From positions 69,316,001 to 69,380,000 of the forward strand of contig OZ024741.1 in assembly GCA_964016885.1 (NCBI GenBank): a DNA stretch of 64,000 nucleotides, written 5' to 3'. The notes under the pieces are model-generated. The model ran no database searches and had not been told where the DNA came from. It was given only the letters and a program-made list of their open reading frames with translations. Each line of letters starts with the position of its first letter. Position 1 is the first letter of the stretch. Positions 15,794 through 63,378 of this stretch are shown here, one piece after another. Made by a program: the position numbers and the translations under genes. Source of the stretch: Eledone cirrhosa. Taxonomy: Eukaryota.

Positions 15794-15968
15794 ATAAATG
15801 TAATCTGAGTTTTTCGAATATTAATAATAACATTCTCATTCGTTTGCAATTATGCAAACAAGCCTCAATTTTATAGCCATTGCAAACGAATAGAATGTTA
15901 TTATTAATATTCGAAAAACTCAGATTACATTTATTGTATTCAGCCATGTAGAGCGAAATTTTCTTTTT

Positions 15969-15972
<4 letters not shown>
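15794..15972. mobile_element. Fold-back element in (TA)n: arms 15794-15850 / 15879-15934 plus ~40-nt tail
   Basis: Near-perfect 56-bp inverted repeat read directly. Confidence 0.85.
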
Positions 15973-15999
<27 letters not shown>

Positions 16000-16002
<3 letters not shown>

Positions 16003-16199
16003 GTAGAAAACTGGAAGGTAATATCTGTAGTGGTAGAGCACTCAGTCCATGGGACAAGTTAAGTAGAAGTGGTTACACAACAGTTAGTTCACCATACCGA
16101 GAACAATTGTTTCACCTTAGCGAATCCTCTGCTGAGGATCCTCTAAGGTGAAACAATTGTTCTCGGTATGGTGAACTAACTGTTGTGTAACCACTTCTA
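16000..16199. mobile_element. Fold-back element in (TA)n with hammerhead-like centre; arms 16064-16120 / 16143-16199 plus ~64-nt tail
   Basis: Perfect inverted repeat; + strand reads CTGAGGA-TCCT-CTA-AGGT-GAAA-CAATTG-TT. Confidence 0.8.
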
Positions 16200-17160
16200 T
16201 ATATATATATATATATATATGAGATAGAGAGATGTGTAAATTCCCGACTAACAAGAATATGTCTGCTGTTTTTACCATTTGTCTTTAACTCTTCTGTGAC
16301 CATATTTCTAACAAGAGTATGCTATCTTTCTATTTTAATCATCAAAATAATCAACACTAATGAGAGGTTTAGTGAAATAACTAACTTTCAACATAACAAA
16401 AGACAATGTATTTAACTACTGAAATCTAATATTATTTGGTATGTAATAATTGTTTCTACTTTTGGCACAAGGCCAGCAATTTAAAAAGAAGGGGAAAGAT
16501 GATTAAATCAACCTCAGCACATTACTAGTACATTATTTTATCAAGCCCATAAGGATGAAAGGTAAAGTTAACCTTAATGTCATTTGAACTCAGAACATAA
16601 AGACCATAACTATCTATATGTCACAAAGCATGTTGTTGATGCTCCACCACCTTAATTTGGTATGTAATAAGATTTCAGTTCAAAGTTTAAATTTAAATAT
16701 GAACACTTTACTTTAACAGAGTAGTTTTGTGTGGGTTGGTGTTCTAAAGGATTAAAAAAAAGCAGATCTGCTCTAACCTGCACTGTGTATATTGTCCAAA
16801 GATTTCAATCAACTGATCTTACAGGAGTTATTGACCCTATTTGTTTATAAAATTTAAACACCCACAAAGTGTTGTATAATTTCAGCTGATCAATATTTTT
16901 CAACTTGCTATTTTACCGTTGTCAGAATTTACAGAACTGTTACTGATCATATTCAATGAAGAACACAAAACCATTATTATTGTTGTGTTTGTTGTTCTTC
17001 AGAGAAGCCAGTTAAGGTTTTATGGTTATGTAAATGTTCAAATTAGCATTTCTAACTGTACATGCATAAAAACATGAAGGTGTATATCTTAAGGTTTTCT
17101 TTTTCTTTTTTTTTTTCTTGTCATAATGTTACCTTTGGTTTGTTATTATTTGATGTGTTC

Positions 17161-17215
<55 letters not shown>

Positions 17216-18154
17216 TGTCTGTCTGTCTGTCTGTTTATTTCATTTCATTTGTAATCTGATATGGATGATTCTTCAAAGTTTGATATTTGCATATTTTATT
17301 TATCTATTTATATATTTCTATATTTATTTATGCTAATGAGGAGCTACAAGAAGTGTCTGTTTCTATTACAGTCATCGTAGTGTAGTTTATAGAAAACAGA
17401 AGTAGTCAGTGATATCAGGGTGGTTAATGTAGTGATGTTGGTAGTATTAGTGGTAGTAGCTGTGGTTATATTGATGGTAGTGATGTTAGCAGTAGCAGTT
17501 GTAGTAGCTGTGGTTATGTTGCTGATGGTGACATATTGGCAGAATCATTAATGCATTGGAAGAAATGTTTTGTTGCATACAGGGCCAATAAAATAAAGTA
17601 CCAGTCAAGTACTGTGGTTCATTTAATCCTTTAGCAGTTAAACCGGCCGTATCTGGCCAGAATTCTCTCACTCTTTCTGTTCAAACCAGCCATAACCGGC
17701 TGCTCATACTGATGTTAAAATATAGTTTTCAAGAATATATAACATCAAAATCTCAAAGCTTCGATTTTTGTGAGATAAAGCCTTTACCATGAAAATACAA
17801 TAGTAAATATGGAGTAATGTAAATGCTAAAGGGTTAATATATTTTCCCTTCTTCCTCAGAAATTTCTGGCTTATACTAGAAACAGTTATTAGTATTGACA
17901 GTGGAAGTATTGGTGTTAGCAGTGTTACTGGTACTGATATTGGTGATGATAGCTGGGTTGTTTTAGTTAGTGGAGATCTTGGTGTAGTATTGGTGACATA
18001 TTGCTGGAAGTGGTAGTGGTGTTTGTAGAAGAACTTTCCTTACTATATTTCTAATAAGAGACACTGTCTATGATTTTCAAATAATTTTGAAAATAATCAA
18101 CAATTTGAAAGGATTTAATAATATAATTAACATTCTCATTATTTATGTTGTGCT

Positions 18155-18375
18155 AGGGCAGTGGATTGGCAGAATCGGTAGAGCGTTGGACAACATGCTT
18201 TGTGGCATAGTTACGTCCCTTTACATTCTGAGTTCAAATCCTGCTGAAGTTAGCTTTGTCTTTCATCCTTTCAGGGCTGATAAAATAAAGTGCCAGTAAC
18301 ACACTAGGGTTGATTTAATCGACTTTCCCTTTCCTTTTAAATTGCTGGCCTTGTACCAAAAAGTAGAAACAATTA
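18155..18375 (+). mobile_element. Meta-type SINE, full length
   Basis: TGGCAGAATCGG A box, GAGTTCAAATCC B box, Meta-type body. Confidence 0.85.
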
Positions 18376-18456
18376 CTTTTCTAGTGTTTGGATCATAATT
18401 TCACAAAGATTCTTACATAAAATTTTGATGGGAATATTTTTGATAAATATAAATGC

Positions 18457-18876: not shown

Positions 18877-19060
18877 AATATACATTTTTTTAAATCTTAG
18901 AAACGTGGCAGGTTTCAGGCATTTTGGTATGAAAACGGGTACAAAATAGTGGAATTAGCCATGGAGATGATAGCCAGGAAGCAGTTCAAATAATATTAGT
19001 ATTAATAGTGCTAATGATGATGATCTTAACTCAAGCAATATTGTAAAAGGCATTACTTAC

Positions 19061-19205
19061 CATTGACTGCCACTTTCTTGGAGGACATTGAAACCAAAGG
19101 ATTGAAACTGAGAAGATATGTACTAAGAAACCTCTGAGGTGTATGATGTTTGCTTATTGTTTTTTCTTGTTTTTCTTTTGTGCTGGGTGTGGTGAGAGAG
19201 AGAGT
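19061..19205 (-). other. Candidate host exon (145 bp)
   Basis: Branch-like CTAAT, acceptor cttttccgacacag|, strong donor ATG|gtaagt; one open frame ending MSSKKVAVN. Confidence 0.5.
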
Positions 19206-19491: not shown

Positions 19492-19569
19492 CCTTTTATT
19501 TTTATCTAAAGACATTTTTTTCCAATTCCATCTTGCCCGTCCCCTCAATCTATTTTATTTCTCATTGTT

Positions 19570-19605
19570 TCTTCTGATGAAGGACTAGCGTCCGAAACAT
19601 TAAGA
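19570..19605 (+). ncRNA. Minimal type I hammerhead ribozyme motif in a dispersed short repeat
   Basis: TCTT-CTGATGA-A-GGAC-TAGC-GTCC-GAAA-CA-TT-AAGA; decayed homologues at 21889-21925(-), 39247-39282(+), 49326-49361(+). Confidence 0.75.
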
Positions 19606-19706
19606 CCCTCTTCCTGCTATATCGAACGCTAACCTAATATATACCTTCCATATACTGTACCGATTGTGTTGTTATTTCTGTTTACCTTGTACTAACTTGC
19701 ACGCAC

Positions 19707-20942: not shown

Positions 20943-21033
20943 ATGTATATATATATATATATATATATATGGGGAGGGTCATATTTGTGTAATAATATTG
21001 CCAGAATTAATATATATATATATATATATATAT

Positions 21034-21223
21034 AAAACGGAGTTGTAGTAAGAAACCAGATGGACCATAACGCACCAGAGTACTCAATACTTAGAGTAGT
21101 AGAGTGGGTAATAGGAGAAAGTATGACCCCGACAGCAGAGCTCAACCCGTTTCGACGGCTATTTCTGGACTGAAATAGCCGTCGAAACGGCTTGAGTTCT
21201 TCCGTCGGGGTCATACTTTCTCC

Positions 21224-21226
<3 letters not shown>
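21034..21226. mobile_element. Fold-back half-hammerhead element, copy 1 (arms 21111-21165 / 21172-21226)
   Basis: Inverted repeat; GAAA-CGGC..CCG-TC follows the central helix; (TA)n flanks. Confidence 0.88.
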
Positions 21227-21689: not shown

Positions 21690-22045
21690 AATCTGGATAA
21701 GCTTGTGCCTACCTGCTATGGTATTGAGTACTTTATCTTTCATTTATTAAAAATAACACTCACACGCACACACATGTACAAACACACATATATATGCATA
21801 CAAAAAGTAAAAAGATAAACAGCACCACAAAATGATATAGTACAATGAAGATGTATGTTTGTTTAACACTTGATATAGTAGGAAAAGAGACTTAACGTTT
21901 CAGATATTAGTCCTTCATCAAATGATAAAATGAGAAATAAAAGAAATAGAAAGGTAGACGAGAGTGAGAAGATAAAGAAATTGGGAAAAAAGGTTTTTTG
22001 AAAAAAAACCACGTGTGTGTCCAACGTTCATATGTATGTATTATC

Positions 22046-22105
<60 letters not shown>

Positions 22106-22109
<4 letters not shown>

Positions 22110-22471
22110 GATAATAAAATATTGTTATAGGTAATCCAGTTAGAGGTTGTGAAAACTTATTATGGATAGTTTTAGTGTACAGCGTTGTATAACTAAACAA
22201 GAGGTTTACGTAGGTGGCGAGTTTATGAGTTCTCTTGCATTCCTATGTAAGTATATCTTGGAGTAATAATATTGAAAAAGTGAAGAATAACATGGTCAAC
22301 AGTACAAAAAAGGGGAATTTATAATAGTCTCTGATGTTCTGATTGAGCTAACATCGTATTTAAAATTGAGTCAGCAATTTTTAGACAACTTAATCAGAGA
22401 AACAATTGTTAGACTGTAAATAAATTCCCCTTTTTTGTTCTGTTGACCATGTTATTCTTTACTTTTTCAAT
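22106..22471. mobile_element. Fold-back element enclosing a hammerhead (22326-22415, +)
   Basis: Arms 22271-22321 / 22421-22471; AGTCT-CTGATGt-TCTGATTGAG..CTTAATCAGA-GAAA-CAATTG-TT-AGACT. Confidence 0.8.
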
Positions 22472-22535
22472 TATATATATATATATATATATACAATATA
22501 TTAATAAATGGAAACTATATTTATAAAACCATAAT

Positions 22536-22601
22536 TATTTTATTATATATATTTCAAGGGCAACCAAGGTAAATTATGGTGCGCTTTCATCAGATAAAAT
22601 A
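22536..22601 (-). ncRNA. Type I hammerhead ribozyme with complete core
   Basis: TATTTTAT-CTGATGA-AAGCGCACCA..TGGTTGCCCTT-GAAA-TATATA-TA-ATAAAATA; 8-bp helix I. Confidence 0.8.
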
Positions 22602-22728
22602 CAGATTTGTTTTATAAATAAATATTGACAAACCCGGAAAAAAGACAACCTCAACGGTTGAAATTCGCTTTATATCAGTTATAAACATTTTTAAGCTTGT
22701 TGAATCCCAACAAATTAAATATAACCTC

Positions 22729-22796
<68 letters not shown>

Positions 22797-30925: not shown

Positions 30926-31225
30926 TACTATCGCTTGCCTGGTTGCCTTTCGATATATGATGGATGGATGGACTGCGGAATCCTGGAGAGTGGAGGAGAG
31001 AGAGAGAGAAAAATCTGGATGCTCAGCGACAATGCCAAAGATAAAGACAAATTCACCGCTTGGACGAGAATGCGAGCACTCCTCATTGTTTCGACCGCGG
31101 ACGGCTAACATAACCCCATCGGCCCCCGCCCCCACCGCCCCCAACCCCCAAACGCAATCCAAAACTTCAGAGTTGGTACCATAAATGTAGGCACCCTAAA
31201 GGGTCGCGCTAACGAGGTTGTAGAA

Positions 31226-34201
31226 ATGCTTGAGCGTAAGGAGGTCGATGTTTGTTGTATTCAAGAGACCAGGTGGAGGGGTGGGTCTGCTAGGTTCATT
31301 GAGGGTAAAAAACGATGTTATAAGCTTTTCTGGGTGGGAAACGACGATGGGCTGGGTGGAGTAGGAATCATGGTAGCAGAAAAGTGGGCAGATAAGATAA
31401 TAGACGTAAATAGAGTGAACGACAGAATAATTAAAATACGACTTGTCCTCAATAGAACTACGGTGACAGTAATATCTGCGTACGCACCCCAATCCGGACT
31501 GCCCGGCACTATAAAAGACAGATTCTATGAGACACTGATGCTAACTACCTCCCAAATATCCGACAGTGACTATATAATTATCGCAGGCGACCTAAATGGT
31601 CACGTTGGACAACATTGTGACGGCTACGACGAAATCCATGGAGGCTATGGGTTTGGTACTAGAAATGAGGAAGGCTCCAGAATCCTGGAATTCTGTGATG
31701 CAAATAACCTAACTATCTGTAACACTAACTTCAAAAAACGTGACAATCACCTGATCACCTATAGATCCGGGGAACACACAAGCCAGGTAGATTATATCCT
31801 TACCAGAAGACGTGACAGAGTGTCTGTTGTAAACACTAAATCCCTCCCCCATGAAGAATGCACCTCCCAACATAGACTGATAATTAGCGACCTCATAGTC
31901 AGGACGAGACGTACTCGACAGCAGAAGAGGACTATCCTCAGGAGAAAAATATGGAAGCTAAAGGACCCCACAGCCAGGAATAAATTTCAAAGCATATTAC
32001 TTGATGCTTTCGACAGTAAGGAAGAACATTTAGAGTCGGACGATATAGAGGGAGAGTGGGAATTTCTGAAAGCAAACCTGCTGTTGGCGACAGACGAAGT
32101 CTGTGGCTGGGGCAGGCCTGTAGGCAGGAGGAGAGTAACATGGTGGTGGAACAGTAAGGTGGAGGGGTCAATTAAGGCCAAAAAGCAGGCTTGGAAAGTA
32201 TGGCGGGATGGGGGAAGTAGAGAAGACTATCAAGTGGCCAGGAGGGAAGCTAGGAGACAAGTGTACTTAGCAAGAAGGGAAGCTGAGGAAAGAAAGTTCA
32301 AGCATGTTCTACAACGCGATGACCAAAAACGTGAGGTGTTCAGGATTGCTAGGCAATGCGTCAAGGAAAACCGTGATATTGTCGGGGAGAAGTGTGTACT
32401 AAACGACGATGGCACACTTGCCATCACCGACGCTGATAAGAAGGTAGCTTGGAAGTGTCACTATGAAAGGCTACTAAATGAGGAGAATAAATGGGAGAAA
32501 GACAGTCTCCCCCATATCGACCCAATAGAGGGACCAGCAGTGTTAGTCGAGGGGAGTATAATAAGTAAGGCAATCAAGGATATGAAGACGGGTAAGGCGG
32601 CTGGGCCTTCGGAAATAGTTGCTGAGATGCTGAAGGCATCTGGCACGGTGGGACACACCATGGTCACCCGCATAGTTAACCAAGTCGTACAGAATGGGGT
32701 TGTTCCGAAGGACTGGCATAGCAGCATCATCGTTAACTGTTATAAGGGTAAAGGAGACGCCCTAGATAGGAGTAACTATAGAGGCATTAAATTAATTGAC
32801 CAGGTCATGAAGGTCACGGAAAAAGTAATAGCGCAACTAATCAGAGAGAGAATTGACCTAGATGAAATGCAGTTCGGGTTTGTGTCAGGCAAAAGTACCA
32901 CAGACGCTCTTTTCATAGTACGACAACTACAGGAGAAGTACCTAGCTAAAGGTAAACCCCTCTACTTAGCTTTTGTCGACTTGGAGAAAGCCTTCGACAG
33001 AGTCCCCCGCTCCATTATCTGGTGGGCTCTTAGAAAACTAGGCATTGACGAATGGCTTGTGAGGGCTATACAAGCCATGTATAAAGAAACAGTCAGCAAG
33101 GTTAGAATTAACAACGAATATAGTGAAGAGTTTAGCGTAAAAGTTGGCGTCCATCAGGGCTCTGTTCTCAGCCCCCTACTATTTATTATTGCCCTTCAGG
33201 CTATAACAGAGGAGTTCAAGACAGGCTGCCCATGGGAACTCCTATACGCAGACGACCTGACACTCATAGCGGAATCAATGGCCGAGCTAGAGAAGAAATT
33301 CCAAACATGGAAGCACGGCCTAGAGTCAAAAGGACTTAAAATTAACCTGGCTAAGACCAAAGTACTAGTTTGTAGGAAAGAAAACAAGGCGGCGGTCCCT
33401 TCTGGGAAATGGTCGTGCTCGGTGTGTAGGAAAGGCGTAGGTAGAAACTCCATTTTATGTCCTAAATGCAAAGTATGGGTGCATAAAAGATGTAGTGGGA
33501 TCACAGGTAAGCTAACTAAGAACATAGATTTTACATGTGGCCGGTGTTCTGGTGCAATAAGTAGCAGCAAGTGCCCACAAAATACTAGCTCTTTCAATTG
33601 CGCAGAGGGTTCTATAGAAATAGTGGACAGCTTCCGTTACCTGGGCGATAAAATCAGCAGTGGGGGAGGGTGCTCTGAAAGTACTGTAGCTAGAGTCAGA
33701 ACTGGTTGGAAAAAGTTCAGAGAGCTTATACCACTATTAGCTGCTAAAGGGTTCTCCCTAAAAATGAAAGGCAGGTTGTACGATGCCTGCATACGAACAG
33801 CAATGCTGCATGGCAGTGAGACCTGGGCATTGTGTGCAGAGGATATACGCAGACTAGAGAGGAACGAAGCTTGCATGCTCCGCTGGATGTGTAACAGTAA
33901 TATACGTGAACGGCAAAGCATAAACGAACTAAGGAAAAAATTAGAGATAAGAGGGATCAGATGTTGTTTACTCGAGAGAAGGCTACGTTGGTATGGACAC
34001 GTGATGCTCATGAAAGTCGATAGCTGTATAACAAAGTGCAGGGCAATAAAGATAGACGGTAGTCACGGAATAGGCAGACCTAGAAAAACCTGGGACGAGC
34101 TGATAAACTCCGACATCACACACTTACACCTCTCCAAGACAATGTCACTGGACCGAGACCTTTGGCGGTACTCAGTAACAGAGAAGACCCGCCTTACCTA
34201 A
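31226..34201 (+). CDS. RTE ORF: APE endonuclease + reverse transcriptase with inserted PHD-type zinc finger
   Basis: CIQETRW, ISAYAPQ, GDLNGHVG, VDYIL, QHRLI; DLEKAFDRV, QGSVLSPLLF, YADD; C4HC3 insert; LRWYGHV, GRPRKTW. EN homology (FRVGTINVGTL) starts in frame at ~31166, upstream of this ATG. Confidence 0.97.
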   Translation: MLERKEVDVCCIQETRWRGGSARFIEGKKRCYKLFWVGNDDGLGGVGIMVAEKWADKIIDVNRVNDRIIKIRLVLNRTTVTVISAYAPQSGLPGTIKDRFYETLMLTTSQISDSDYIIIAGDLNGHVGQHCDGYDEIHGGYGFGTRNEEGSRILEFCDANNLTICNTNFKKRDNHLITYRSGEHTSQVDYILTRRRDRVSVVNTKSLPHEECTSQHRLIISDLIVRTRRTRQQKRTILRRKIWKLKDPTARNKFQSILLDAFDSKEEHLESDDIEGEWEFLKANLLLATDEVCGWGRPVGRRRVTWWWNSKVEGSIKAKKQAWKVWRDGGSREDYQVARREARRQVYLARREAEERKFKHVLQRDDQKREVFRIARQCVKENRDIVGEKCVLNDDGTLAITDADKKVAWKCHYERLLNEENKWEKDSLPHIDPIEGPAVLVEGSIISKAIKDMKTGKAAGPSEIVAEMLKASGTVGHTMVTRIVNQVVQNGVVPKDWHSSIIVNCYKGKGDALDRSNYRGIKLIDQVMKVTEKVIAQLIRERIDLDEMQFGFVSGKSTTDALFIVRQLQEKYLAKGKPLYLAFVDLEKAFDRVPRSIIWWALRKLGIDEWLVRAIQAMYKETVSKVRINNEYSEEFSVKVGVHQGSVLSPLLFIIALQAITEEFKTGCPWELLYADDLTLIAESMAELEKKFQTWKHGLESKGLKINLAKTKVLVCRKENKAAVPSGKWSCSVCRKGVGRNSILCPKCKVWVHKRCSGITGKLTKNIDFTCGRCSGAISSSKCPQNTSSFNCAEGSIEIVDSFRYLGDKISSGGGCSESTVARVRTGWKKFRELIPLLAAKGFSLKMKGRLYDACIRTAMLHGSETWALCAEDIRRLERNEACMLRWMCNSNIRERQSINELRKKLEIRGIRCCLLERRLRWYGHVMLMKVDSCITKCRAIKIDGSHGIGRPRKTWDELINSDITHLHLSKTMSLDRDLWRYSVTEKTRLT

Positions 34202-36899: not shown

Positions 36900-37061
36900 A
36901 ACGAAGGTACTCAATACTTAGGGTAGTAGAGTGGGTAATAGGAAAAAGTATGACCCCGACGGCAGAGCTCAAGCCGTTTCGACGGCTATTTCAATGGCTA
37001 TTTCTAGAAATAGCCGTCGAAACGGCTTGAGCTCTGCCGTCGGGGTCATACTTTTTCCTAT
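36900..37061. mobile_element. Fold-back half-hammerhead element, copy 2
   Basis: Perfect arms 36938-36992 / 37007-37061; internally deleted tail. Confidence 0.88.
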
Positions 37062-37074
37062 ATATATATATATA

Positions 37075-38926: not shown

Positions 38927-39088
38927 TATCTATATATATATATAATAGAAATAGGATTTAGCTTCAAGCATAGCTGTATACAAATATGTATAGAAATTTC
39001 GTATTTCTAAAGAAACATGGAAGCCGTAACTATGGAAACACTGGGGCTAACGCCCTCTGGTGGTGTCCAGCAGAAGCAAGGAGGACAA

Positions 39089-48212: not shown

Positions 48213-49875
48213 TTCATATTTATTAATTTTTTCTTCTTTTTTATATTTTTAAGGTAAGTTTTATGACTTTGAATCCTGACCCCAATGGCCTCAGTGACCT
48301 CAGCAACATTGTGAATTTGTATGTAACCTTTTATTATCATCATACAGTCCATCTTATATAAAGTTAACTTAGCACACATTTCAATGTCATTCTCAGTAAC
48401 CCCCTCCCAAATGTCATATTGTACCATGAGTTTCAAGTATCTTGCTCTTAGTATTAAAAATTCATTCAGGGTAGTGAGTTGGCAATGCATCGGATAAAAT
48501 GTTTAGTGTGTTGGGCTTATCATTGTAATGTCATGGGTTGTTTTGTGTTCTTGAGCAAAACATTTCATGTGCTCCAATAAACTCAGCTGAAGATGAGTAT
48601 TAGCCGTAGCTGCTGTGATTGTCGCAGTAATGCTACTACTTAAAATAAAATTTTGCCAGAGATAGATTAGTCAAATTTAATAAGTGGGGGTGGGGTGGGG
48701 CTTGGAATATGAGCAGGGTTGGTATTTGGGGTGGTTGTGTGGAAAATCTGAATAATTAATAAGTGGTGGGGGACGATTATTTGAGACCCAAGAATATATA
48801 TGATATATATGGTAATTAACTTTATCACACAGAATCTACTCTAGCCTTGCTTGTTATCAATATGACTTACATATATAGCAATAACTAGTTGTTAAGATCA
48901 TGGATTATGAACATGATTTATAACTAGATTAGTGGTGATGCTTGTTACATCATTTTAACATCCTACCAATGACTGCTGGTTCTTAGTTATCAGTTAAGCA
49001 TGATGTAGTTATGATGCAAACATTTTATAATTTATTACAGTAAAAATACATAATTTACTGTGAAATTCTAGAAGTGATATTAAACATTTATTTGACACAA
49101 AATGTCATATAAAGATTTATTATAGATATTATTGAAATATGTTCCTTCACTAGATAAATTATCTTTCTCTCTAGCAAAGTCCATGATTAATTAATTTTGC
49201 TGATTAACTAAACACTTGCTTTTGTCCTGTCTAAATGTTTTCCTGTTTTCTTTCTTTTCTTACTCTCATCTCTCTTCCTATTTCTTATTCCCTCTCACAA
49301 ATATCCCCTTCTGTCTCTCATTCTATCTTCTGATGAAGTACTGATGTCCAAAGCGTTAGGACTATTTTCCTACTATATCAAGCACTGAACTAATATATAT
49401 CATCATTGTATTGTTCTGTGTTGAATTTTCCTATATATATATATAATTGTTTTTACTTTTGGTACAAGGCCAGCAATTATCCCAATGCATTACTGGTACT
49501 TTATTTTATCGACCCTGTAAGGATGAAAGGCAAAGCTAACTTTGGTGGGATTTGTACTCAAACCGTAAAGGGCCGTAACTTTATGCTGCAAAGCATGGCA
49601 TCCCACCCTCTACTGATACTGTCAATCCATCTTGCCTGCTTTTATCCCAATGTTAACCTACCCATTCCGTAAACAAGGATCAATAAAAATAAGCACCAAA
49701 GTACTAGGGTTGATATAATTGACTGAAGCCCTTGAAGGACATGCTCCAGTGTGGCCACACCCAAAGGTGGAGCCACACTGAAAAACATATAAGGAAGCTC
49801 TATTTGTAAAACTTCTCTAGGGAGAAATAAATTTGAAAATGTGTCAATAGATGGTAGGAGGATCATTTGCATGTA

Positions 49876-51609: not shown

Positions 51610-53380
51610 TTATTAAAATAATAGATTAAAGTTTAAGCAAAGAATCGCTGCTTTCACCCTTAACGGGATCTTCTGAAACTAACAAAGTCAATCTGTAAAC
51701 GCAGAAGTGGATATTTCAAAAAACGTTGCAACCGGAGGAAGACAGGAAGACGATACTTTGGTTCGTGGAAACATTCGCTGGCAAAGAACGGGAAAAAACA
51801 AATATAATACGTCATTAATAGGAGCTGTGAAAAACAATTACGAGCAAAGACAGAACCACGTTTATGGTATAAAAGAGGTCGTAGACTAATGTTCTCTTAG
51901 GTGGTTCATAGAGACGTTCTCTGTCAATGAACGAAAAAAACGAAGATAATACGTCATATGTGGAGCGTGGAGAACAATAGCACGCCAAGACAAAACCACG
52001 TAAATGGTATAGCAGAAGTCGTAGACTAAAATTCTAACTAGGAGACCGAATGAATCTCCGCTACAGAGGTAAGAACAAAGTAAATAAATACAATACGGAT
52101 GTAATAGAAATAAATAAATATATACACGCAAACAAATACGTACATACACAAGTATACGCAAAACACTTACCATAGGTATACAAAACCACGCACATATAAA
52201 TATGTGCGTGTGTGTATGCGTGTATACAAATAAATAATTATATAAACGTATATAAATAAATAAATACATATATAACAAGCGCACACACATACTTACATGT
52301 AAATACACGAATGTTCGGAGACGTAAGTCAACCAAAACATGGAGTACACATATACACACTCTACATACGTACGAACCAGCATATTCACACAGACGCGAAA
52401 CTCCCCCATACACAAAGCCAAACCATATGTACCAGAATATATAAAAATTATACGCCATAACATAAACAATCAAATATACATACGAGAAGGTATACGTACC
52501 TTCACAAAACCTACGGGTAATATATACTTACCTATGCAAATAAGTAATGGTATAAACAAAACATATACTTAGCTCCCACATCAAGACGTAAAATATCCAC
52601 GTATAGATCGTACTATCCGTTTGGGTATAACGTGGGGATGTAATACAGGAAAGTTTTCTGCAATTTATGTTTACAAGCCGAAATTGCCTCAGATTTTTTG
52701 TTTAAGATGTGGTCTGTGGCGTAGAGTATTTCCAGGGCCTCAGTGGCGCAGAGCTCACATGGTCTTTTATTTCCATTATACGATCTAGCCCAAGCTAGGA
52801 TCTCCCAGTGTAACTTATATTGGGTGTGGTTGTCTTTTAGACTCCAGATATAAGCTGAAAGTGACGTCATATTCCTTTTTAGAGGGTAACGAAAAGAATG
52901 GGTTTGCATGTAAAGACGCTGCTTGATTCTATTGGCGGTTAACCCTATGTAGGCCCTACGGGACGTGGGTGTAACAACCTTACATTTGTAGACAATGTTA
53001 CTAGAGAGTCATTTCCCGGATAGGGGGCAATCAACCCGATTCCTACAATTACAGTTAGTACTAACTACTGGGTTGCACGTGTTCCTACGGCTAGGTAGTT
53101 TAGCTAAATTTGAAGCTGTGATGTTATGTGCAAGGTTAGGAGTCGTAGAGTAAGAAATTTTAATAGTATTTCTATTAGCTAATGGTGTGGCCACCTCCAT
53201 ATTATATGGTGGGTTATACCAACAAATGCGACGGGATCTATTTCTTCTAGGTTTATTTTCGTACTCTGTATATGCTACCTTATCGAGAAATCCACTTCGA
53301 GCAAGAGCTTCATTGTAATAAGTGGAATGGTTGTTGAAAATACGCTCGTTGGTGGAAAGACGGGAAAGCCTCAACGAAAC
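51610..53380 (-). mobile_element. Penelope-like element 3' fragment (RT C-terminus, Cys linker, C-terminal GIY-YIG, long 3' UTR)
   Basis: [33 protein letters not shown][TGA]LSSNIVYKC..AYIGLT..KQRLY..TSLSAYIW..CELCATEALEI..LNKKSE..CKH; clade assignment tentative. Confidence 0.88.
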
Positions 53381-54552: not shown

Positions 54553-55352
54553 ATCTATAAAGCTCAGTGTGTGGTCATGCTCCTTTGTTATAGAAATCTA
54601 CGATATATAATTTCTTCAATTGAAATTTACAATTCAGTACTCGAAATAGCTTCGATTGCATCTTGACGCAGATAATTTTTTCAATTTCACCCACAATTAC
54701 GCAAAAAATAGATAAAACTCAGTATTTTACGATTTTTCTCTCTCATTTAAACTGCTGAACTCTTTCTACTACCATTCAAAATTTATACAACTTCATACTT
54801 TCTGCTACTTTCTCTTTCCAAGCTTGATGGTGATACTGTCCGTTCACACCACTCCCTATTGTCTTAAATTTAGAAAACACATATCCTCTATGAGGTTACT
54901 AAACCTGCTAGAAACAGCAGCTAACTCTCCCCCATATCACACCCCTCCCCACTGTCTTAAATTTAGAAAACATATCTTCTATGAGGTCACTAAACCTGCT
55001 AGAAAGAGCAGCTAACTCTCCCCCATATCACACCACTCCCTACTGTCTTAAATTTAGAAAACACACAGACAACCATGCAGAACAACTCCATTGCAGCTGT
55101 GTTGTTCGGCTGGCATCGTCTGCGCGCGTGTTGCGCAAGTACTGTGAAACAATAAATTTCAACACTTTTTTGCACAGAGATAATATCCATAGGCGAAACT
55201 ACAATTGTCACTGCTGGCACAGCTCATGCTTCCAGGTCTGCAATTCATTCACCCAGTGCCTGGCAGACAAAAAAGTGCTGCCATAAAATGGGTGGTGCAA
55301 CCTAACTTTGGTAACTTAATCACCCGAGCAACGCCGGGCTTTAATGCTAGTA
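54553..55352 (-). mobile_element. Non-autonomous Helentron-type element
   Basis: Minus strand TACTAGCATTAAAGCCCGGCGTTGCTCGGG ... CTTTATAGAT. Confidence 0.7.
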
Positions 55353-55633
55353 TATATATATATATACATATATGTATGTATATATATATATATACATATA
55401 TGTATGTATGTCTATATATATATATACATATATGTATGTATATATATATATATATGTATATATATACATATATGTATGTATATATATTGTTATACTTTGG
55501 GAGGGACATGTTGCCAATAAGAAACACACGCACCAGTTGCTTTCACTTCAATTTATTATATATTTATAAATTTACAAATCTATAAATTTCTGGTTGGTTG
55601 GTTGGTTCCACAACCAGATAGTTGTTTATATAT

Positions 55634-55678
55634 AGTCATAGTCCTTTCGTCACACACTCTGTGACCTCTTCAGTGACT
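55634..55678 (-). ncRNA. Minimal type I hammerhead ribozyme (inverted-arm copy)
   Basis: Reverse complement of 55804-55848. Confidence 0.85.
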
Positions 55679-55803
55679 GGGGATTCCTTTCTTTGTTTCT
55701 GTGCCTTTCCTTTCTTCTGTCTTACGCCATTTTGTTTCTGTGTGAAACAAAATGGCGTAGGACAGAAGAAAGGAAAGGCACAGAAACAAAGAAAGGAATC
55801 CCC

Positions 55804-55848
55804 AGTCACTGAAGAGGTCACAGAGTGTGTGACGAAAGGACTATGACT
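55804..55848 (+). ncRNA. Minimal type I hammerhead ribozyme, complete core
   Basis: AGTCA-CTGAAGA-G-GTCACA-GAGTG-TGTGAC-GAAA-GGAC-TA-TGACT. Confidence 0.87.
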
Positions 55849-56068
55849 ATATATAAACAACTATCTGGTTGTGGAACCAACCAACCAACGAGAAATTTAT
55901 AGATTTGTAAATTTATAAATATATAATAAATTGAAGTGAAAGCAACTGGTGCGTGTGTTTCTTATTGGCAACATGACCCTCCCAAAGTATAACAATATCG
56001 GTTTCAACACACGATTTCAGATAAAGAATCTTGCTAAACAAATTCAGAAACGAAATATGTATATATAT

Positions 56069-56264
56069 ATAGGAACCAGTAAGACCCCGATGGCTGAGCT
56101 CAAGCCGTTTCGACGGCTAATTCTGGACGTCCAGAATTAGCCGTCGAAACGGCTTGAGCTCAGCCGTCGGGGTCTTACTGGTTCCTATTACCCACTCTAC
56201 TACCCCAAGTATTGAGTACTTTGGTGTGTTATGGTCCACCTGGTTCCTTACCACATTTCCTTCG

Positions 56265-56266
<2 letters not shown>
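56069..56266. mobile_element. Fold-back half-hammerhead element, copy 3
   Basis: 120-bp loopless palindrome 56069-56188 plus 78-nt tail. Confidence 0.88.
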
Positions 56267-56328
<62 letters not shown>

Positions 56329-56664
56329 ATATGTATGTATGTATGTATATATGTATGTATATATGTATATATGTATGTATATATGTATATATATATATAT
56401 ATAATATATATATATATATATAATATATATATATATATATAATATATGTATATATATATATATATATAATATATGTATATATATATATATATAATATATG
56501 TATGTATATATATATATATAATATATGTATGTATATATATATATATAATATATGTATGTATATATATATAATATATGTATATATATATATATATAATATA
56601 TGTATGTATATATGTATATATATATACATATATGTATGTATATATGTATATGTATGTATATATG

Positions 56665-56727
<63 letters not shown>

Positions 56728-56728
<1 letters not shown>

Positions 56729-57070
56729 GAGGCATATGGCTTAGTGGTTAGAGCATTGGCCTTGCAATCGAAAGGTTGTGAGTTCAATTCTCGAACCGGG
56801 TGATGTGTTGTTTCCTTGAGCAAGAGACTTTATTTCACATTGTTCCAGTTTACTCAGCTGTAGAATGAGATGGTAGGGACTGAGGTCCATATCATTCCAC
56901 TGCAAAGTGGTCGTGGAGGTGCCACGGCAAAAAAAAGCACCCAGCACTCACTGTAAATGAGGTTGGTGTTAGGAAGGGCATCCAGCTGTAGAAATCAAGC
57001 CAGAATCAGTTCCCGTCCCACCCTTGCAAGCAGGGAAAAGCGGACGTAAAATGATGATGATGATGATGAT
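56728..57070 (+). mobile_element. CORE-type SINE
   Basis: As above; within (TA)n. Confidence 0.9.
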
Positions 57071-57133
57071 ACATATATGTATATATATATATATACATGT
57101 ATGTATGTATTTATATATATATATGTATGTATG

Positions 57134-57164
<31 letters not shown>

Positions 57165-57199
57165 GTATGTATGTATTTATATATATATATGTATGTATG

Positions 57200-57230
<31 letters not shown>

Positions 57231-57329
57231 GTATGTATGTATTTATATATATATATATGTATATATACATGTATGTATGTATTTATATATGTATATATAT
57301 ATATATATATACATGTATGTATGTATTTA

Positions 57330-57371
<42 letters not shown>

Positions 57372-57373
57372 CA

Positions 57374-57415
<42 letters not shown>

Positions 57416-57436
57416 CATATATGTATATATATATAT

Positions 57437-57490
<54 letters not shown>

Positions 57491-57539
57491 ATGTGTATAT
57501 ATATATATGTATATATATATATGTATATATATATATACA

Positions 57540-57582
<43 letters not shown>

Positions 57583-58351
57583 ATGTGTATATGTGTATAT
57601 ATATATATGTATATATATATATGTATATATATATATACATATATGTATATATATGTATATATATATATGTATATATATATATTGTTATATTTGGGGAGGG
57701 TCATATTTGCGTAATATTGCCAGAATTAATAACAGAACACACTCACTGTTTGGTTGGTTTTCGCTTCTCGCTGTCTTTTATATATATATATCTGCGATCT
57801 AACTTACTCGGTCCTCAATGTTGCCATTGACTGACCGGCGGTCAAAAATAATACAGATACAATATAGACAAACACATATATATATAGTTTACATAATTTA
57901 CATAAATCTTTCGTTGCACATCTGCAACATCGTCAGTGGTGTTATATTCATTGTTCCTCCTGTTGTGTTGTATGTCTACGCCATTTTTTTTGTTCAGTCT
58001 GTCTATATATTTATTTATTTATTTGCTTGTTTGTTTATCTTATTTTATTTTGTCTTCTTTGCGCATGCGTTTGCGCGTGTGTATAGTGTGATGTGTGACT
58101 AGTGTGTATAGTGTTGTGTCTGCTGGGTGACTAGTGTGTGTTTATGTGCTTGTGTATGTATTTATTTATCTTATTTTATTTTATTTAATTTACTTATTTA
58201 TTTATACTTCTCTTAGGTCAGTGTTGTTTGTTTGGGTGTTGTTGTTGTTCCACTCATTCTTTCTGTTTAGCTTTGGTCTTCTAATTTCTATTTCACTGGC
58301 CTCTCTGATTTGCCTATCTGCTGGGTCATTCCTATGTTTAGAAATTATTCT

Positions 58352-60130
58352 ATAATCAAGATGTCCCCAGATGTATGTGAAAGTACAGAGGACCTCCTCA
58401 GCAGAATCAGTGAGTGCAACAAAAACAGGAGCCTATCCAACTGCATAATAGGCAGCATGGATGTGGTGTCACTGTACCCATCCATTAACATTGATTTTGC
58501 TGTGAAAAGATGTGTGGAGATGATCATTGAGAGTGAGGTGGAGTTCTGCGACGTCGACACAGACGAACTGGGCCTCCTACTTAGACTTACCTACGACACT
58601 GACTACCTAGACAGCCATGACCTTAGATGTTTCTGCCCTAGTAGACCTATAAGAGGTAGACCCCCCACCATAACCTCAATGGCTAAAAAGACTCCCATAG
58701 GAAGGTGGATTGGGTGGACCAAAGCTATACGGACCCCCCAAAACACTGATCAGGTAAGAAAAATGGTCGCACATGCAATAGGGGCTAGTATCAAAACTAC
58801 CCTAAAGGGCCACATATTTAAGTTCAATGAGAAAATCTACACCCAAAATGAGGGAGCAGCCATCGGCGTCAGCATAGCTGGTGATGTTGCCAACCTTTTC
58901 ATGGTATGGTGGGAAAGGAGACTTAAAGATCTCCTTAATGAAAGCTCCATAGACCTCATCATGTACTCTCGTTATGTAGACGATATCAATATAGTTATAA
59001 GAACACCCCCACTAGAGAGCACTAACAAGTTTGATTTAGAACGTAGCACGATGGAAAGCATCCAGCAGATAGCTAATTCCATACACCAGAGTATAACTGT
59101 AACTATAGACTTCCCTTCCAAACACCCTAACAATAGACTACCTGTATTAGACACAGAACTCTGGATTAACACTATAGACGAGAGAGCCCAAATTCTCCAC
59201 TCACACTATGCTAAACCCATGGCCTCCAAATACCTGATACTCAAAAACTCAGCAATGTCCAGTAGTGCTAAGTTTAATATTCTGATCGCAGATTTGGTAC
59301 GAGTGATGAAGAATGTGTCCAGCATGTGCGACCCAACAGAAATGGAAGGACACATCCAACACTTCATCAACCGCATGCAGTTCTCTGGCTACAACCAAAG
59401 AGACAGAGTCAGAGTATACGAAGGAGCCATGGAAAAGTATAAGACCCTCATAGAACTGGACATGAAAGGAATTTGCCCACTATACAGGAGCAAATCATGG
59501 AATAGCTTAGATAGGGCTAGACATAAGATAGGGAAGGCCACATCATGGTACGACAACCAGAGATATCAGAGTGTCATGTTTGTGGACGCCACCCCTGGAG
59601 GGAAATTAGCTAACCAGTGTAGAAAGGCCCTGAGAAAGACCCACTTAAAAATAAAGGTGGTAGAAAAGCCAGGAACCACCATAAAATCCCTGATCAGCAA
59701 AACCTACCCTTTTAAGAAAACCCACTGTACCAATAGGAAATGTATCATATGTAAGGTGAACCCCCGGATAAACTGTAAAACTAGAAACGTAGTCTATAGC
59801 ATAAGATGTACAGAGGGTACTTGCAGAAACACGACAACAACATACATAGGTGAGACAGCTCGTAGCATAGGTGAAAGGATAGACCAACACTGGGGGGAAC
59901 TAAAAGGACGAAAAAACGGGTCAGTACTATACGAACATGCTAGACAACAACATGACGGTAACATAGACAACATAGAAATTAGAATAATATCTAAACATAG
60001 GAATGACCCAGCAGATAGGCAAATCAGAGAGGCCAGTGAAATAGAAATTAGAAGACCAAAGCTAAACAGAAAGAATGAGTGGAACAACAACAACACCCAA
60101 ACAAACAACACTGACCTAAGAGAAGTATAA
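58352..60130 (+). CDS. Penelope RT + Cys-rich linker + GIY-YIG endonuclease (5'-truncated, otherwise uninterrupted; Neptune-like, tentative)
   Basis: GSMDVVSLYPSI, GAAIGVSIAGDVANLFM, RYVDDI, LPVLD; CxxxxCxxC..C linker; VVYSIRC..YIGETARS..R..H..H...H..E..PKLN. The first 14 codons of the ORF-track call come from the inverted arm. Confidence 0.95.
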   Translation: MIKMSPDVCESTEDLLSRISECNKNRSLSNCIIGSMDVVSLYPSINIDFAVKRCVEMIIESEVEFCDVDTDELGLLLRLTYDTDYLDSHDLRCFCPSRPIRGRPPTITSMAKKTPIGRWIGWTKAIRTPQNTDQVRKMVAHAIGASIKTTLKGHIFKFNEKIYTQNEGAAIGVSIAGDVANLFMVWWERRLKDLLNESSIDLIMYSRYVDDINIVIRTPPLESTNKFDLERSTMESIQQIANSIHQSITVTIDFPSKHPNNRLPVLDTELWINTIDERAQILHSHYAKPMASKYLILKNSAMSSSAKFNILIADLVRVMKNVSSMCDPTEMEGHIQHFINRMQFSGYNQRDRVRVYEGAMEKYKTLIELDMKGICPLYRSKSWNSLDRARHKIGKATSWYDNQRYQSVMFVDATPGGKLANQCRKALRKTHLKIKVVEKPGTTIKSLISKTYPFKKTHCTNRKCIICKVNPRINCKTRNVVYSIRCTEGTCRNTTTTYIGETARSIGERIDQHWGELKGRKNGSVLYEHARQQHDGNIDNIEIRIISKHRNDPADRQIREASEIEIRRPKLNRKNEWNNNNTQTNNTDLREV

Positions 60131-60402
60131 ATAAATAAGTAAATTAAATAAAATAAAATAAGATAAATAAATACATACACAAGCACATAAACACACACTA
60201 GTCACCCAGCAGACACAACACTATACACACTAGTCACACATCACACATAACACTATACACACACGCAAACGCATGCGCAAAGAAGACAAAATAAAATAAG
60301 ATAAACAAACAAGCAAATAAATAAATAAATATATAGACAGACTGAACAAAAAAAATGGCGTAGACATACAACACAACAGGAGGAACAATGAATATAACAC
60401 CA

Positions 60403-60430
60403 CTGACGATGTTGCAGATGTGCAACGAAA
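60403..60430 (+). ncRNA. Hammerhead core + helix II in the Penelope 3' UTR (mirror copy 57909-57936, -)
   Basis: CTGACGA-T-GTTGCA-GATG-TGCAAC-GAAA; helices I and III not resolved by eye. Confidence 0.55.
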
Positions 60431-60783
60431 GATTTATGTAAATTATGTAAACTATATATATATGTGTTTGTCTATATTGTATCTGTATTAGTTTTGACCG
60501 CCGGTCAGTCAATGGCAACATTGAGGACCGAGTAAGTTAGATCGCAGATATATATATATAAAAGACAGCGAGAAGCGAAAACCAACCAAACAGTGAGTGT
60601 GTTCTGTTATTAATTCTGGCAATATTACGCAAATATGACCCTCCCCAAATATAACAATATCTGTTTCGACACACGATTTCATATAAAAAACCTCGCAAAA
60701 CTAATTCATCGCCGCTATATATATATACATATATGTATATATATATATACATATATATACATATATGTATATATATATATACA

Positions 60784-60846
<63 letters not shown>

Positions 60847-61238
60847 ATATATATATATATGGTGGCTGCCAACTCGTTTTCGAGTATGGCCACTACTTTA
60901 TATCCATGTAGGAGAACCCCTACCGATGCGCTGAACGAGTGTGACTTTTTAGTCCAGCCAGCGACTTGAAAACTCTGGTACAAACACTACACTTGTGACA
61001 ATTATTGACACATAGTGCTGGGCCCATGGTACCATCTGACGACAAGTGCAGAGAGATATATATATACATATATGTATATATACATATATGCATTGTTGTG
61101 GCTTTCTAAACTACATATTTTACACATTTCACAATGCTTCAAGCAAACTTTAACACCCTTATATATATACATATATACATATATAAACCTTACAAGGATT
61201 TACACCAGTCCGGCCTCCTGTTATTTTATTTATATATA

Positions 61239-61920
61239 TAACAAAGTGCAGGGCAATAAAGATAGACGGTAGCCACGGAGTAGGCAGACCCAGAAAAACA
61301 TGGGACGAGCTGATAAATTCCGACCTCACACGCTTACACCTCTCCAAGACAATGTCACTGGACCGAGACCTTTGGCGGTACTCAGTAATAGAGAAGACCC
61401 GCCTTACCTAAATACAAAGTAAAAACCTACTACAGTCAGTAGGCATCTCTATCAAAACACACCCCCGTCCCACCACCTCCACCCCACCCACACCGCCCCT
61501 TTCAATGTAAAGTTATGTTGGTCCCACAACATCCAGGCCGAAACAAATGAGATCGTGTAGGTGTCACGACAAAAAACACACAGTCCACGCTGTAAATGTG
61601 GCCGTGTAGGCAACACGGTAAAAACCTCCCAGCCCCACACTGTAAATGTGGTTGGTGTTAGGAAGGGCATCCAGCTGTAGAAAACCCGCCAGACAGTCCA
61701 CGCTGTAATGTGGCCGTGTAGGCAACACGGTAAAAACCTCCCAGCCCCACACTGTAAATGTGGTTGGTGTTAGGAAGGGCATCCAACTGTAGAAAACCCG
61801 CCAGACAGTCCTATGCGAGCAAGACAACCACTCTTGCCTCAAGTGGGAAAACCCCCGTCCAAACCCATGCAAGCGTGGAACACGGACGCTAAACCTGATG
61901 ATGATGATGATGATGATGAT
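61239..61920 (+). mobile_element. RTE 3' fragment (duplicated-UTR variant)
   Basis: Matches the reverse complement of 4709-5290. Confidence 0.92.
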
Positions 61921-61936
61921 ATATGTATATATACAT

Positions 61937-62791
61937 ATCATCATCATCATCATCATCACCGTTTTACGTCCGTTCTTCCACGCTAGCATGGGTTAGACGG
62001 GTTGTCCTGTTGTGGGCAGTGTCTGGTCGGCTGACCATGCCTTGCTCATACAGGAACTGATCTGGCTTGATTTCTACAGCTGGATGCCCTTCCTAACACC
62101 AACCTCATTTACAGTGAGTGCTGGGTGCTTTTTCGTGGCGCCTACACGTCCACTTTACAGTGTGGGCTGGGTGCTTTTTTGCCGTGGCACCTCCACGACG
62201 ACCACCTTGCGGTGGGGGGGGGGGGCATATTGTTTATATGCTTCAGCATGTACCCATGGGAGGTCGGGTACCCTGTATTACTGCGTGACGCCAGAAGTCA
62301 CGGTCGTGTGTCATTGACTTTGAGAGGTGTAGTTGGGTAAGGTCGGCTTTTATCACCTCATCCCAAGTCATCTTGGGTCTCCCCACTCCGCGGTTTCCAT
62401 CAACTTCTAGTGCTCTGCACCTTTTTATGCAGCTGTCATCCTTCATACGCATCACATGTCCATACCAGCGTAACCGCCTCTCCTGCACGCAGCATTTGAT
62501 TCCTCTTATGCTCAGTCTCTCTCTCAATTCATTTATGCTTTGTCGTTCACGTATATTACTGTTACACATCCATCGGAGCATGCAGGCTTCGTTTCTCTCT
62601 AATCTACGTAAGTCTTCCACCTTCAGCGCCCAGGTCTCACTACCATGCAACATCGCTGTTCGGATACACGCATCATACAGTCTGCCTTTCATTCTGAGGG
62701 AGAAGCCTTTTGCAGCTAGCAGTGGTAGTAGTTCCCTAAACTTCTTCCATCCCGTTCTTACCCTAGTTATTGTACTTTCTGAGCACCCACC
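61937..62791 (-). mobile_element. Sister-subfamily RTE 3' fragment
   Basis: [39 protein letters not shown]; (TGA)n tail; 5' end in (TA)n. Confidence 0.93.
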
Positions 62792-62795
62792 TATA

Positions 62796-62877
<82 letters not shown>

Positions 62878-62901
62878 CATATATGTATATATATATATAT
62901 A

Positions 62902-63378
62902 TAAAATATGTAGTTTAGAAAGCCACAACAATGCAGATGGGAAATCTCGAGGTAAGAAGTGAGTGAGAAATAGGGGAAAAGTGAAAATGAAAACAAAACA
63001 AAGGTAGAAGGGTTACCGTAGTGGAGATTTAATCCCAATATTTCGGGCTCACGCCCATCAACGGGGGAAAGTTCCAAGAGGGGGGGAACAGGCTAAGCCG
63101 GAGAAAGTTGTAGTGTCGTTAAAACTTAGTAATGCTGAACGGCTTAGCCTGTTCCCCCCCTTTTGGAACTTTCCCCCGCTGATGGGCGTGAGCCCGAAAT
63201 ATTGGGATTAAATCTCCACTACGGTAACCCTTCTACCTTTGTTTTGTTTTCATTTTCACTTTTCCCCTATTTCTCACTCACTTCTTACCTCGAGATTTCC
63301 CATCTGCATTGTTGTGGCTTTCTAAACTACATATTTTACACATTTCACAATGCTTCAAGCAAACTTTAACACCCTCTT
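62902..63378. mobile_element. Fold-back element: ~199-bp arms, 39-nt spacer, 40-nt tail, hammerhead-like motif in each arm
   Basis: Arms 62902-63100 / 63140-63338; CTGATG-GGC-GTGA-GCC-C-GAAA-TAT-T-GGG at 63179-63206; solo 3' end at 61090-61160. Confidence 0.85.

Follow-up and report, generated by a model that had tools for sequence, protein, structure and literature searches.

Do the eight short, palindromic, TA-flanked elements found in a 64,000-nt stretch of the Eledone cirrhosa genome (contig OZ024741.1, positions 69,316,001 to 69,380,000; hereafter the window) form a class of mobile elements of their own, or are they products of elements already known? The window belongs to a genome of 3.0 Gb and is rich in TA microsatellites and pieces of long interspersed nuclear elements (LINEs). 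The eight palindromes lie at 15794, 16000, 21034, 22106, 36900, 55484, 56069 and 62902 (E1 to E8, in that order). Our analysis led to the conclusion that these stubs are real, abundant and within known Penelope biology, a new class being unsupported save for one retrozyme-derived copy. Judging by their sequences, seven of the eight are the ends, pseudo-long terminal repeat (pLTR) plus tail, of five coding Penelope-like elements (PLEs) that are present at length elsewhere in the genome. The stubs are probably 5'-truncated, head-to-head PLE insertions with two fixed ends and independent arms, likely generated by twin priming at two sites.

All eight inverted repeats were present where the initial annotation had placed them and, as it had proposed, fall into six sequence families, one of which (family A) was found by sequence comparison to have three copies in the window (21034, 36900 and 56069). 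Identity of each element with its own inverted sequence is 126/137, 130/136, 100/112, 159/188, 112/122, 504/515, 118/120 and 406/437 for E1 to E8, respectively. As described there as well, (TA)n borders the elements on both sides (8/8; only 7% of the window lies within 3 nt of (TA)4 or longer), all eight carry a tail on one side only (37-165 nt as measured here), and the arms are established head to head with the post-cleavage side facing out. The "hairpin centre", by contrast, was not confirmed as a fold of one arm: the tail-less arm is the deeper one in E1, E4 and E8 by approximately 30, 120 and 35 nt. The longer element at 57679-60715 is built like the stubs, as the same annotation had noticed, with an inverted arm and a 55-nt tail. 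This element, too, is truncated at its 5' side, since homology with a longer, related open reading frame (ORF) begins at 58352. It has 66% amino-acid identity with the parent of E6, and its family includes none of the eight stubs. A short TA-flanked end fragment of this family lies at 20971-21009 and one of family F (the family of E8) at 61086-61162. Stubs of different families are chained within shared TA tracts at 15726-16220 and 55351-57682, as well as in loci L008, L011, L016, L128 and L147, so that older insertions seem to supply targets for newer ones.

The genome was searched with each family, 30 loci being read per search and scoring being limited to the 40 best candidates, and positions were expressed as the distance (d, in nt) from the distal (tail) end of the family. 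The outer ends proved to be fixed at two positions, with the tail as the stretch between them. In the E6 family, the two arms of 22/23 head-to-head pairs end at d 0-1 and d 56-57, respectively (the initial 30 pattern loci supplied 5 pairs, regions picked since both strands matched another 17, and the window copy was added); the remaining pair consists of two tail-less arms, two-tailed pairs amount to 0/23, and 46/46 ends abut TA. Concerning family A, the two positions are d 0-1 and d 75-79 in 41/50 first-listed palindromes; of the other nine, one is two-tailed and the rest are diverged or rearranged. In the remaining families, the ends of the short arms gather at d 64 (E2), 40 (F), 162-173 (E4) and 32-47 (E1). 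The distal end stands next to TA in 45/49 family A, 26/30 E2, 27/30 E4, 23/30 F and 9/30 E1 loci, the low E1 count arising because many copies continue into the next tandem unit. An empty-site test for pre-existing TA was usable at 1/69 sites, where seven paralogues have the TA tract without the element.

The centres are variable. Among 50 family A copies 43 distinct centres were recorded, and identical ones recur in different subfamilies; being copy-specific, they indicate that the palindrome is made at each insertion and not inherited. They comprise microhomologies, short local duplications, 0-1 nt spacers and A/T runs (L029, L281). A 0-1 nt spacer without a palindrome in the template was found in 8/86 centres (12 matches, of which four were set aside as filler or natural palindromes). 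In L281, where each arm extends to the start, the centre is A7 followed by T4, as would result from A-tailing of both cDNA ends. With asymmetric ends, variable centres and parents coding for reverse transcriptase (RT), the elements lack the fixed symmetric terminal inverted repeats and shared fixed interior of miniature inverted-repeat transposable elements (MITEs). Two side observations concern individual insertions: in L005 and L024 the flanks outside TA are inverted copies of each other over approximately 30 nt, as if the target had been the centre of an older palindrome, and in L255 the arms differ at a subfamily-diagnostic stretch beside the short-arm end, which may reflect two templates or conversion.

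Arm lengths bear on whether a single cDNA was folded or two cDNAs were joined. Of 86 inverted copies (169 loci, five families), 28 have a tail-less arm that is deeper by at least 10 nt, 18 have a tailed arm deeper by this margin, and 40 have arms within 10 nt of each other. For the 41 position-ordered copies of family A these figures are 15 (tail-less deeper), 13 (tailed deeper) and 13 (tied), while in the E6 family the tail-less arm is longer in 6/22 pairs, once by 3.2 kb. A tail-less arm formed by fold-back cannot exceed the tailed arm, and here it often does, which argues against fold-back of a single cDNA. Additionally, another 40 family A loci yielded 31 head-to-head pairs, in six of which (6/31) no sequence is common to both arms: the tailed arm ends 24-81 nt in, inside or at the edge of the tail, and the tail-less arm spans d 77-89 to near the start. 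Single tail-less arms and one solo tail (in the window) were also found.

Table 1. Palindromic stubs and related Penelope-like features of the window.
Feature	Coordinates	Strand	Assignment	Tail-less or inverted arm	Tailed or longer arm	Tail	Hammerhead and remarks
E1	15794..15971	+	Stub of non-coding 435-bp tandem unit (retrozyme-like); period 435 in locus L099	15794-15880	15879-15971 (longer arm)		None
E2	16000..16199	-	Stub of coding PLE with Hydra-type linker	16131-16199	16000-16133	64 nt	
E3	21035..21226	-	Family A stub	21172-21226	21035-21174		3' half
E4	22107..22476	-	Stub of coding PLE with Hydra-type linker	22315-22476	22107-22323 (ends downstream of ribozyme)	~165 nt	Decayed core in tail-less arm
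E5	36901..37061	-	Family A stub	37003-37061	36901-36992	Shortened	3' half
E6	55484..56054	+	Stub of coding Neptune-like PLE (4,083-bp tandem unit)	55484-55744	55744-56054	56 nt	Complete minimal; cores 55673 (-), 55809 (+)
E7	56069..56265	+	Family A stub (Hydra-type parent, ~3.5-kb unit)	56069-56128	56129-56265	77 nt	3' half; spacer 0 nt
E8	62902..63378	+	Stub of coding C-terminal-endonuclease PLE (family F, ~3.2-kb tandem unit)	62902-63135	63140-63378	40 nt, with first codons of ORF	Hammerhead-like, atypical
Longer head-to-head insertion	57679..60715	+	Neptune-like PLE, 5'-truncated; partial RT-GIY-YIG frame ~58352-60130	57679-58352		60661-60715	Hammerhead-like core 60403, stem I weak, rejected by descriptor
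Solo tail	8641..8720	+	Family A tail between TA tracts, distal end to second fixed-end position					

The palindromes are unlikely to be artefacts of assembly, a doubt that the initial annotation had itself raised, because the two arms of each window element differ by independent point changes and raw DNA reads from three other samples contain strand-changing joints at the family A centre (L018 positions 1496-1513). The family A short arm ending in TA was seen in approximately 2,800-3,200 raw reads per run. In the E6 region the TA-flanked end of the short arm was also observed, most reads beginning at one place that is probably a restriction site. These runs may derive from a sister species, and a depth drop in them may reflect library and subfamily bias, so that they were used only against the artefact.

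Longer genomic copies of five of the six families run into their own RT/GIY-YIG ORF. The family A parent (L034) encodes RT and GIY-YIG in a tandem unit of 3,475 bp, with the ORF starting downstream of the tail; the family F parent (L187) has a unit of 3,246 bp and the E6 parent (L220) one of 4,083 bp. In these three loci partial tandems form the pLTRs, and RT (YxDD) and YIG motifs are visible in all three parents. Pfam placed RVT_1 of family F above the cut-off (6e-11) and GIY-YIG just below it (2e-4), and gave no match for the family A frame tested. Sequence of E2 and E4 is joined to GIY-YIG C-termini, the endonuclease (EN) half, in genomic copies; tandem units were not seen for these two within the retrieved loci. 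The E6 family ranges from 92 nt to more than 4 kb per arm, from stub through full length, and its ribozyme pattern has 3,609 exact matches in the genome (control 0).

By their motifs, three of the five coding parents appear to be of the Hydra clade and one Neptune-like, while one is unplaced; the Hydra and Neptune/Nematis-type labels were drawn from motifs and not from a tree. Specifically, the parents of A, E2 and E4 contain a CxCX5C linker together with CxxC and CxH around conserved E and N, and that of A also has DKT, with RWR replacing RWK. A CX4CxxC linker precedes GIY-YIG in the E6 parent and in the 57679 element, in agreement with the pattern CX2-5CxxC. According to the accessible text of PMC8557442, the CxCX5C linker and flanking CxxC/CxH are features of the Hydra clade, which favors (TA)n. 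The family A parent resembles that clade in its linker, DKT, CxxC/CxH around E and N, (TA)n insertion and hammerheads, and the E2 and E4 parents in linker and C-terminal motifs; family A differs by a unit of approximately 3.5 kb instead of generally below 3 kb and by a loop II of 37 nt, the probable site of the promoter. A further PLE ORF fragment at 52616-53380 (-), broken by TA tracts, is 47% identical to the family A protein.

The E1 family, in contrast, runs back into itself with a period of 435 bp; each tandem unit is non-coding and contains one type I hammerhead-like core, and this sequence fits a non-LTR retrozyme. It is the only parent that is a non-coding tandem with a hammerhead in each unit, the other five families being ends of coding elements, and the tandem arrangement occurs in none of the eight window copies. 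The initial annotation had read the palindromes as non-coding palindromic retrozymes that form a class and are mobilised in trans, a view left unsupported by the coding parents of five of the six families and by centres that are not inherited. A retrozyme origin holds for E1, which comes from a retrozyme-like unit although the copy itself has no hammerhead, and fails for the others, which come from coding elements. Coding parents with RT/GIY-YIG and TA flanks do support the view, also expressed there, that these are Penelope-type products made by RT/GIY-YIG and aimed at (TA)n, rather than MITEs.

Hammerheads were scanned over the whole window with a type I descriptor. They are enriched: four complete motifs were detected versus 0.14 +/- 0.42 in 100 block-wise dinucleotide resamples, none of which (0/100) reached four. 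Two of the four lie inside the listed elements, one in each arm of E6, and the descriptor found no complete hammerhead in the other seven stubs. In E2 a core is present at 16132 (+), the 5' strand of stem I being missing. Hammerhead motifs had been reported for seven of the eight elements; they are clear in six, doubtful in the one at 62902, which is atypical and fails the descriptor, and absent from that at 15794. Among the best 150 of 379 Rfam matches the hammerhead family was not found, and sub-threshold microRNA models fell on hairpins and TA repeats. As for the parents, sequence suggests whole type I motifs in A, E2, E4 and E6, and an atypical one in family F. Long family A copies have a whole type I motif with a 5-bp stem I, a stem II with the 37-nt loop and a hairpin stem III; the U3-A8 core is found in 26/28, N7 varies (G, U, A), and the GUC site is present in 27/28. 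Two other hammerhead families were encountered in the window. One is dispersed, minimal, type I and not palindromic here (19560-19700, 21841-21953, 39220-39361, 49308-49434); its motif is complete at 19574 and decayed in the others, and it also occurs in L099. The other, at 22494-22731 (-) and adjoining E4, brings the TA-flanked families to seven; its hammerhead is complete (core 22593), and L141 contains a relative.

Family A arms stop at a hot spot, 65/82 ends being located at d 129-144 and none at d 145-227. The end peaks, at d 137-138 and 142, correspond to two pyrimidine-A steps, 26-30 nt past a TATA-like word; the steps resemble initiators. A non-parental G stands right before the +1 A in 8/32 arms that reach +1. 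Genome-wide, there are 12,199 exact palindromic centres of family A, and 55,036 arms have the 3'-half motif versus 3,447 with the loop II motif (reversed-pattern controls 0). This 16:1 count exaggerates the stop, as variant subfamilies escape the loop II pattern; roughly four-fifths of the arms stop at the hot spot after allowing for these. By sequence, the hot spot is likely the transcription start of the pLTR, placed inside loop II of the hammerhead. Since the stubs stop inside loop II, they contain half hammerheads, and with a start at this position the ribozyme could cut read-through RNA only. The cleavage site, 41 nt downstream of +1, was rejected as the position of the family A centres, as the arms do not stop there. 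A start inside loop II in every family was likewise rejected, since the ends of E2 and E6 cluster upstream of the ribozyme (10/46 E6 ends at 300-330 nt), which makes the split ribozyme peculiar to family A. These E2 and E6 clusters lie 35-50 nt after a GC-rich palindromic word similar to an NRF1 site. A cluster of E4 5' ends was set aside, as divergence of the reference can produce one.

Twin priming of LINE-1 is an occasional variant, its second primer site varies and its arms do not overlap. The elements described here would share with it two nicks that prime two cDNAs joined as an inversion (PMC2837659), but neither of their sites varies, overlap between the arms is usual, and twin priming seems to be the rule. 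A closer system is the purified Poseidon protein of Anolis carolinensis, which cuts and extends both target strands in vitro; RT starts at two internal sites bounding the tail, the protein is predicted to dimerize, and insertion does not depend on cleavage by the ribozyme (PMC11167929, in its accessible text). Poseidon resembles our families in the two sites bounding the tail and in the AT-rich target. There, however, no difference in start site was seen between the strands and later steps are open, whereas here one arm ends at each site (22/23 and 41/50 pairs, as above), and the start sites of family A would lie in the 5' leader instead of the ORF. Two-strand priming at two sites in vitro and the arm data together have two cDNAs as their simplest joint reading. 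In such a mechanism, a dimeric RT/GIY-YIG protein would nick both strands of the (TA)n tract, and each nick would prime one cDNA at one of two fixed internal RNA sites, both cDNAs most likely being copied from the same RNA or from RNAs of one source. Each cDNA would stop independently, and their 3' ends would be joined mid-element by microhomology, by short filler or by snap-back of either cDNA annealing to the other; the tail would be the stretch between the two RT start sites. Family A stubs would likely be copies of the mRNA 5' leader: with the pLTR promoter starting inside loop II and the RT start sites approximately 60 and 138 nt further downstream, synthesis of each cDNA would run off at the capped end and yield a 200-bp palindrome with a half ribozyme. 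A long copy would require RNA that is circular or made by read-through, or else a transfer to the RNA 3' end. The stubs may be dead-end by-products made in cis, protein in trans being needed by the 15794 unit only.

A broader version, which we put forward tentatively, holds that twin priming at fixed sites is the normal mode of PLE insertion and that family A combines it with a promoter inside the ribozyme. Its mRNA would begin with a half ribozyme and end at a whole one, with a 41-nt terminal repeat, and retrovirus-like strong-stop cDNAs of the 5' leader would be made. Most of these would fail the 3' transfer and produce the more than 12,000 mini-palindromes, and the remaining ones would be completed as long copies, with the pLTR regenerated. 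The literature searched, outside which lay subscription papers and supplements, yielded no published twin-priming or strong-stop model for Penelope.

Several observations weigh against two independent cDNAs and a family A start inside loop II. The tailed arm is longer in 14/22 E6 pairs and in 5/8 family F pairs, the query having favored long tailed arms in the latter. Arms of the same copy are closer to each other than arms of different copies in 26/27 cases in family A and 6/7 in F, which fold-back predicts equally; the signal is absent in E1 and E2, and the comparison is compatible with one RNA as well as with two. The hot spot of family A coincides with a 4-bp hairpin, 5/50 centres match a snap-back there, and later deletion across the unstable centre of a palindrome could shorten either arm. 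Several of the eight extra G's are readable as the last base of the opposite arm. Long arms with a variant motif made up 7/42 of those inspected, and 9/30 copies were long in a tail-only search. Concerning the ribozyme, a C3-A8 mismatch occurs in 2/28 family A cores, and the folding z-score is not significant (-0.12, -1.27).

These points lend some weight to an account that we nevertheless consider unlikely, in which one cDNA primed at the tail end folds back, a cut at a fixed site leaves the tail, and later deletions across the centre produce the asymmetry. Long palindromes are unstable, the arms share subfamily variants, the tailed arm is more often the longer one in E6, and five of the 50 family A centres match the small natural hairpin. 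Such an account requires the deletions to have taken away inner sequence of the tailed arm alone, with the opposite arm left reaching the start, and these must also explain the non-overlapping pairs (6/31) and the 3.2-kb excess of a tail-less arm. A hairpin primer does not yield the 15:13 symmetry or the eight 0-1 nt spacers among 86 without a template palindrome, and tail-less single arms and a solo tail exist; the same applies if an antisense RNA self-primes (PMC3846280, in its accessible part). With two-site twin priming accepted, it is still conceivable, albeit rather improbable, that the family A hot spot is a pause of RT at the loop II hairpin or a cut in the RNA. The 4-bp stem spans -4 to +10 and the peak at 142 coincides with the hairpin edge, yet the main peak is at +1, within the loop, and RT passes the stronger stem III just downstream. 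Non-inverted copies begin there too, some with an extra G (L013, L096), and the hammerhead would cut 41 nt further downstream, not where the arms stop.

Non-coding palindromic retrozymes, transcribed, self-cleaving and copied whole by the Penelope protein in trans, appear very improbable. One size class does reach a very high copy number (12,199), the parent of the 15794 family is a non-coding 435-bp tandem with a hammerhead-like core, and animal retrozymes have been proposed to be PLE derivatives (10.64898/2026.07.22.740005; PMC7229834, as far as their accessible text goes). Whole-palindrome copying is contradicted, however, by centres that are copy-specific and, where recurrent, found in different subfamilies, and the class conflicts with coding parents in five of six families and with the lack of a complete hammerhead in 7/8 window copies. 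Family A stubs are also without the upstream TATA-like word. A weaker form is conceivable, in which transcription of the tailed arm starts anew at the centre of a stub and gives rise to further stubs. Finally, we give hardly any credence to MITEs of a DNA transposon or to fold-back assembly artefacts. The elements are short, inverted, TA-flanked and very many, but their ends are asymmetric, their centres variable and their parents encode RT and GIY-YIG, while the arms have changed independently and raw reads of other samples contain both joints and TA-flanked ends.

The head-to-head form with a tail, which the initial annotation did not know to have been described as a class, had already been published (PMC3846280; PMC8557442). 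In their accessible text, insertion units of endonuclease-containing (EN+) PLEs have an inverted, 5'-truncated copy, a one-sided tail and microsatellite targets (PMC3846280; PMC8557442; PMC2377424). Shared with our elements are the head-to-head inverted pLTRs, the palindromic junction, promoter-like words in the pLTR (pLTR promoters having been shown for Drosophila Penelope; PMC2377424) and a tail near or over the ORF start; published tails measure 30-40 nt instead of 37-165 nt, and in family A here the stubs are the main product. Inverted junctions were ascribed to self-priming on an antisense template (PMC3846280) or, in the accounts accessible, left open, whereas the arm data here point to two cDNAs. 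Dual minimal hammerheads of Schistosoma, on opposite strands 100-700 bp apart and probably truncated PLEs, with the U3-A8 core variant (PMC4209133), are of the same size and orientation class; the accessible text mentions them in passing, without analysis of arm, tail or junction. Animal non-LTR retrozymes, argued to be PLE derivatives (10.64898/2026.07.22.740005), resemble the 15794 parent as a non-coding 435-bp tandem with one core per unit (PMC7229834; 10.64898/2026.07.22.740005); they are direct tandems with a whole ribozyme in each unit, as far as described there, while our other seven elements are inverted, coding-derived and mostly without a whole ribozyme.

The value of the data lies in the statistics of the arms and in the likely start site of family A, which make two open Penelope questions testable, namely the origin of the inverted arms and one-sided tail and the role of the hammerhead, both left open in the accessible literature (PMC8557442; PMC11167929). 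The genome keeps thousands of young insertions that record intermediates. The one-tail rule, independent arm lengths and non-overlapping pairs are exact predictions for the existing in vitro system, and a family A start inside loop II suggests a concrete role for the ribozyme, that of cutting read-through RNA only. Repeat libraries of genomes like this one will label tens of thousands of such stubs as MITEs or microRNA-like hairpins.

Other repeats of the window include LINE copies with apurinic/apyrimidinic (AP) endonuclease, RT and an internal PHD finger at 31109-34201 (+), 859-3495 (-) and 37059-38929 (-), one frame being open over 1,030 aa. LINE 3' ends bear GAT/CAT and TA repeats, and two of them meet tail to tail at 61690-62200. 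A tandem array with a 123-bp period and units 94-99% identical extends over 11349-12916. Lastly, a tRNA-like match (36 bits) was detected at 10150-10208 (-) inside a dispersed repeat, to which others, e.g., that at 7417-7481, are related; it is probably the head of a short interspersed nuclear element.

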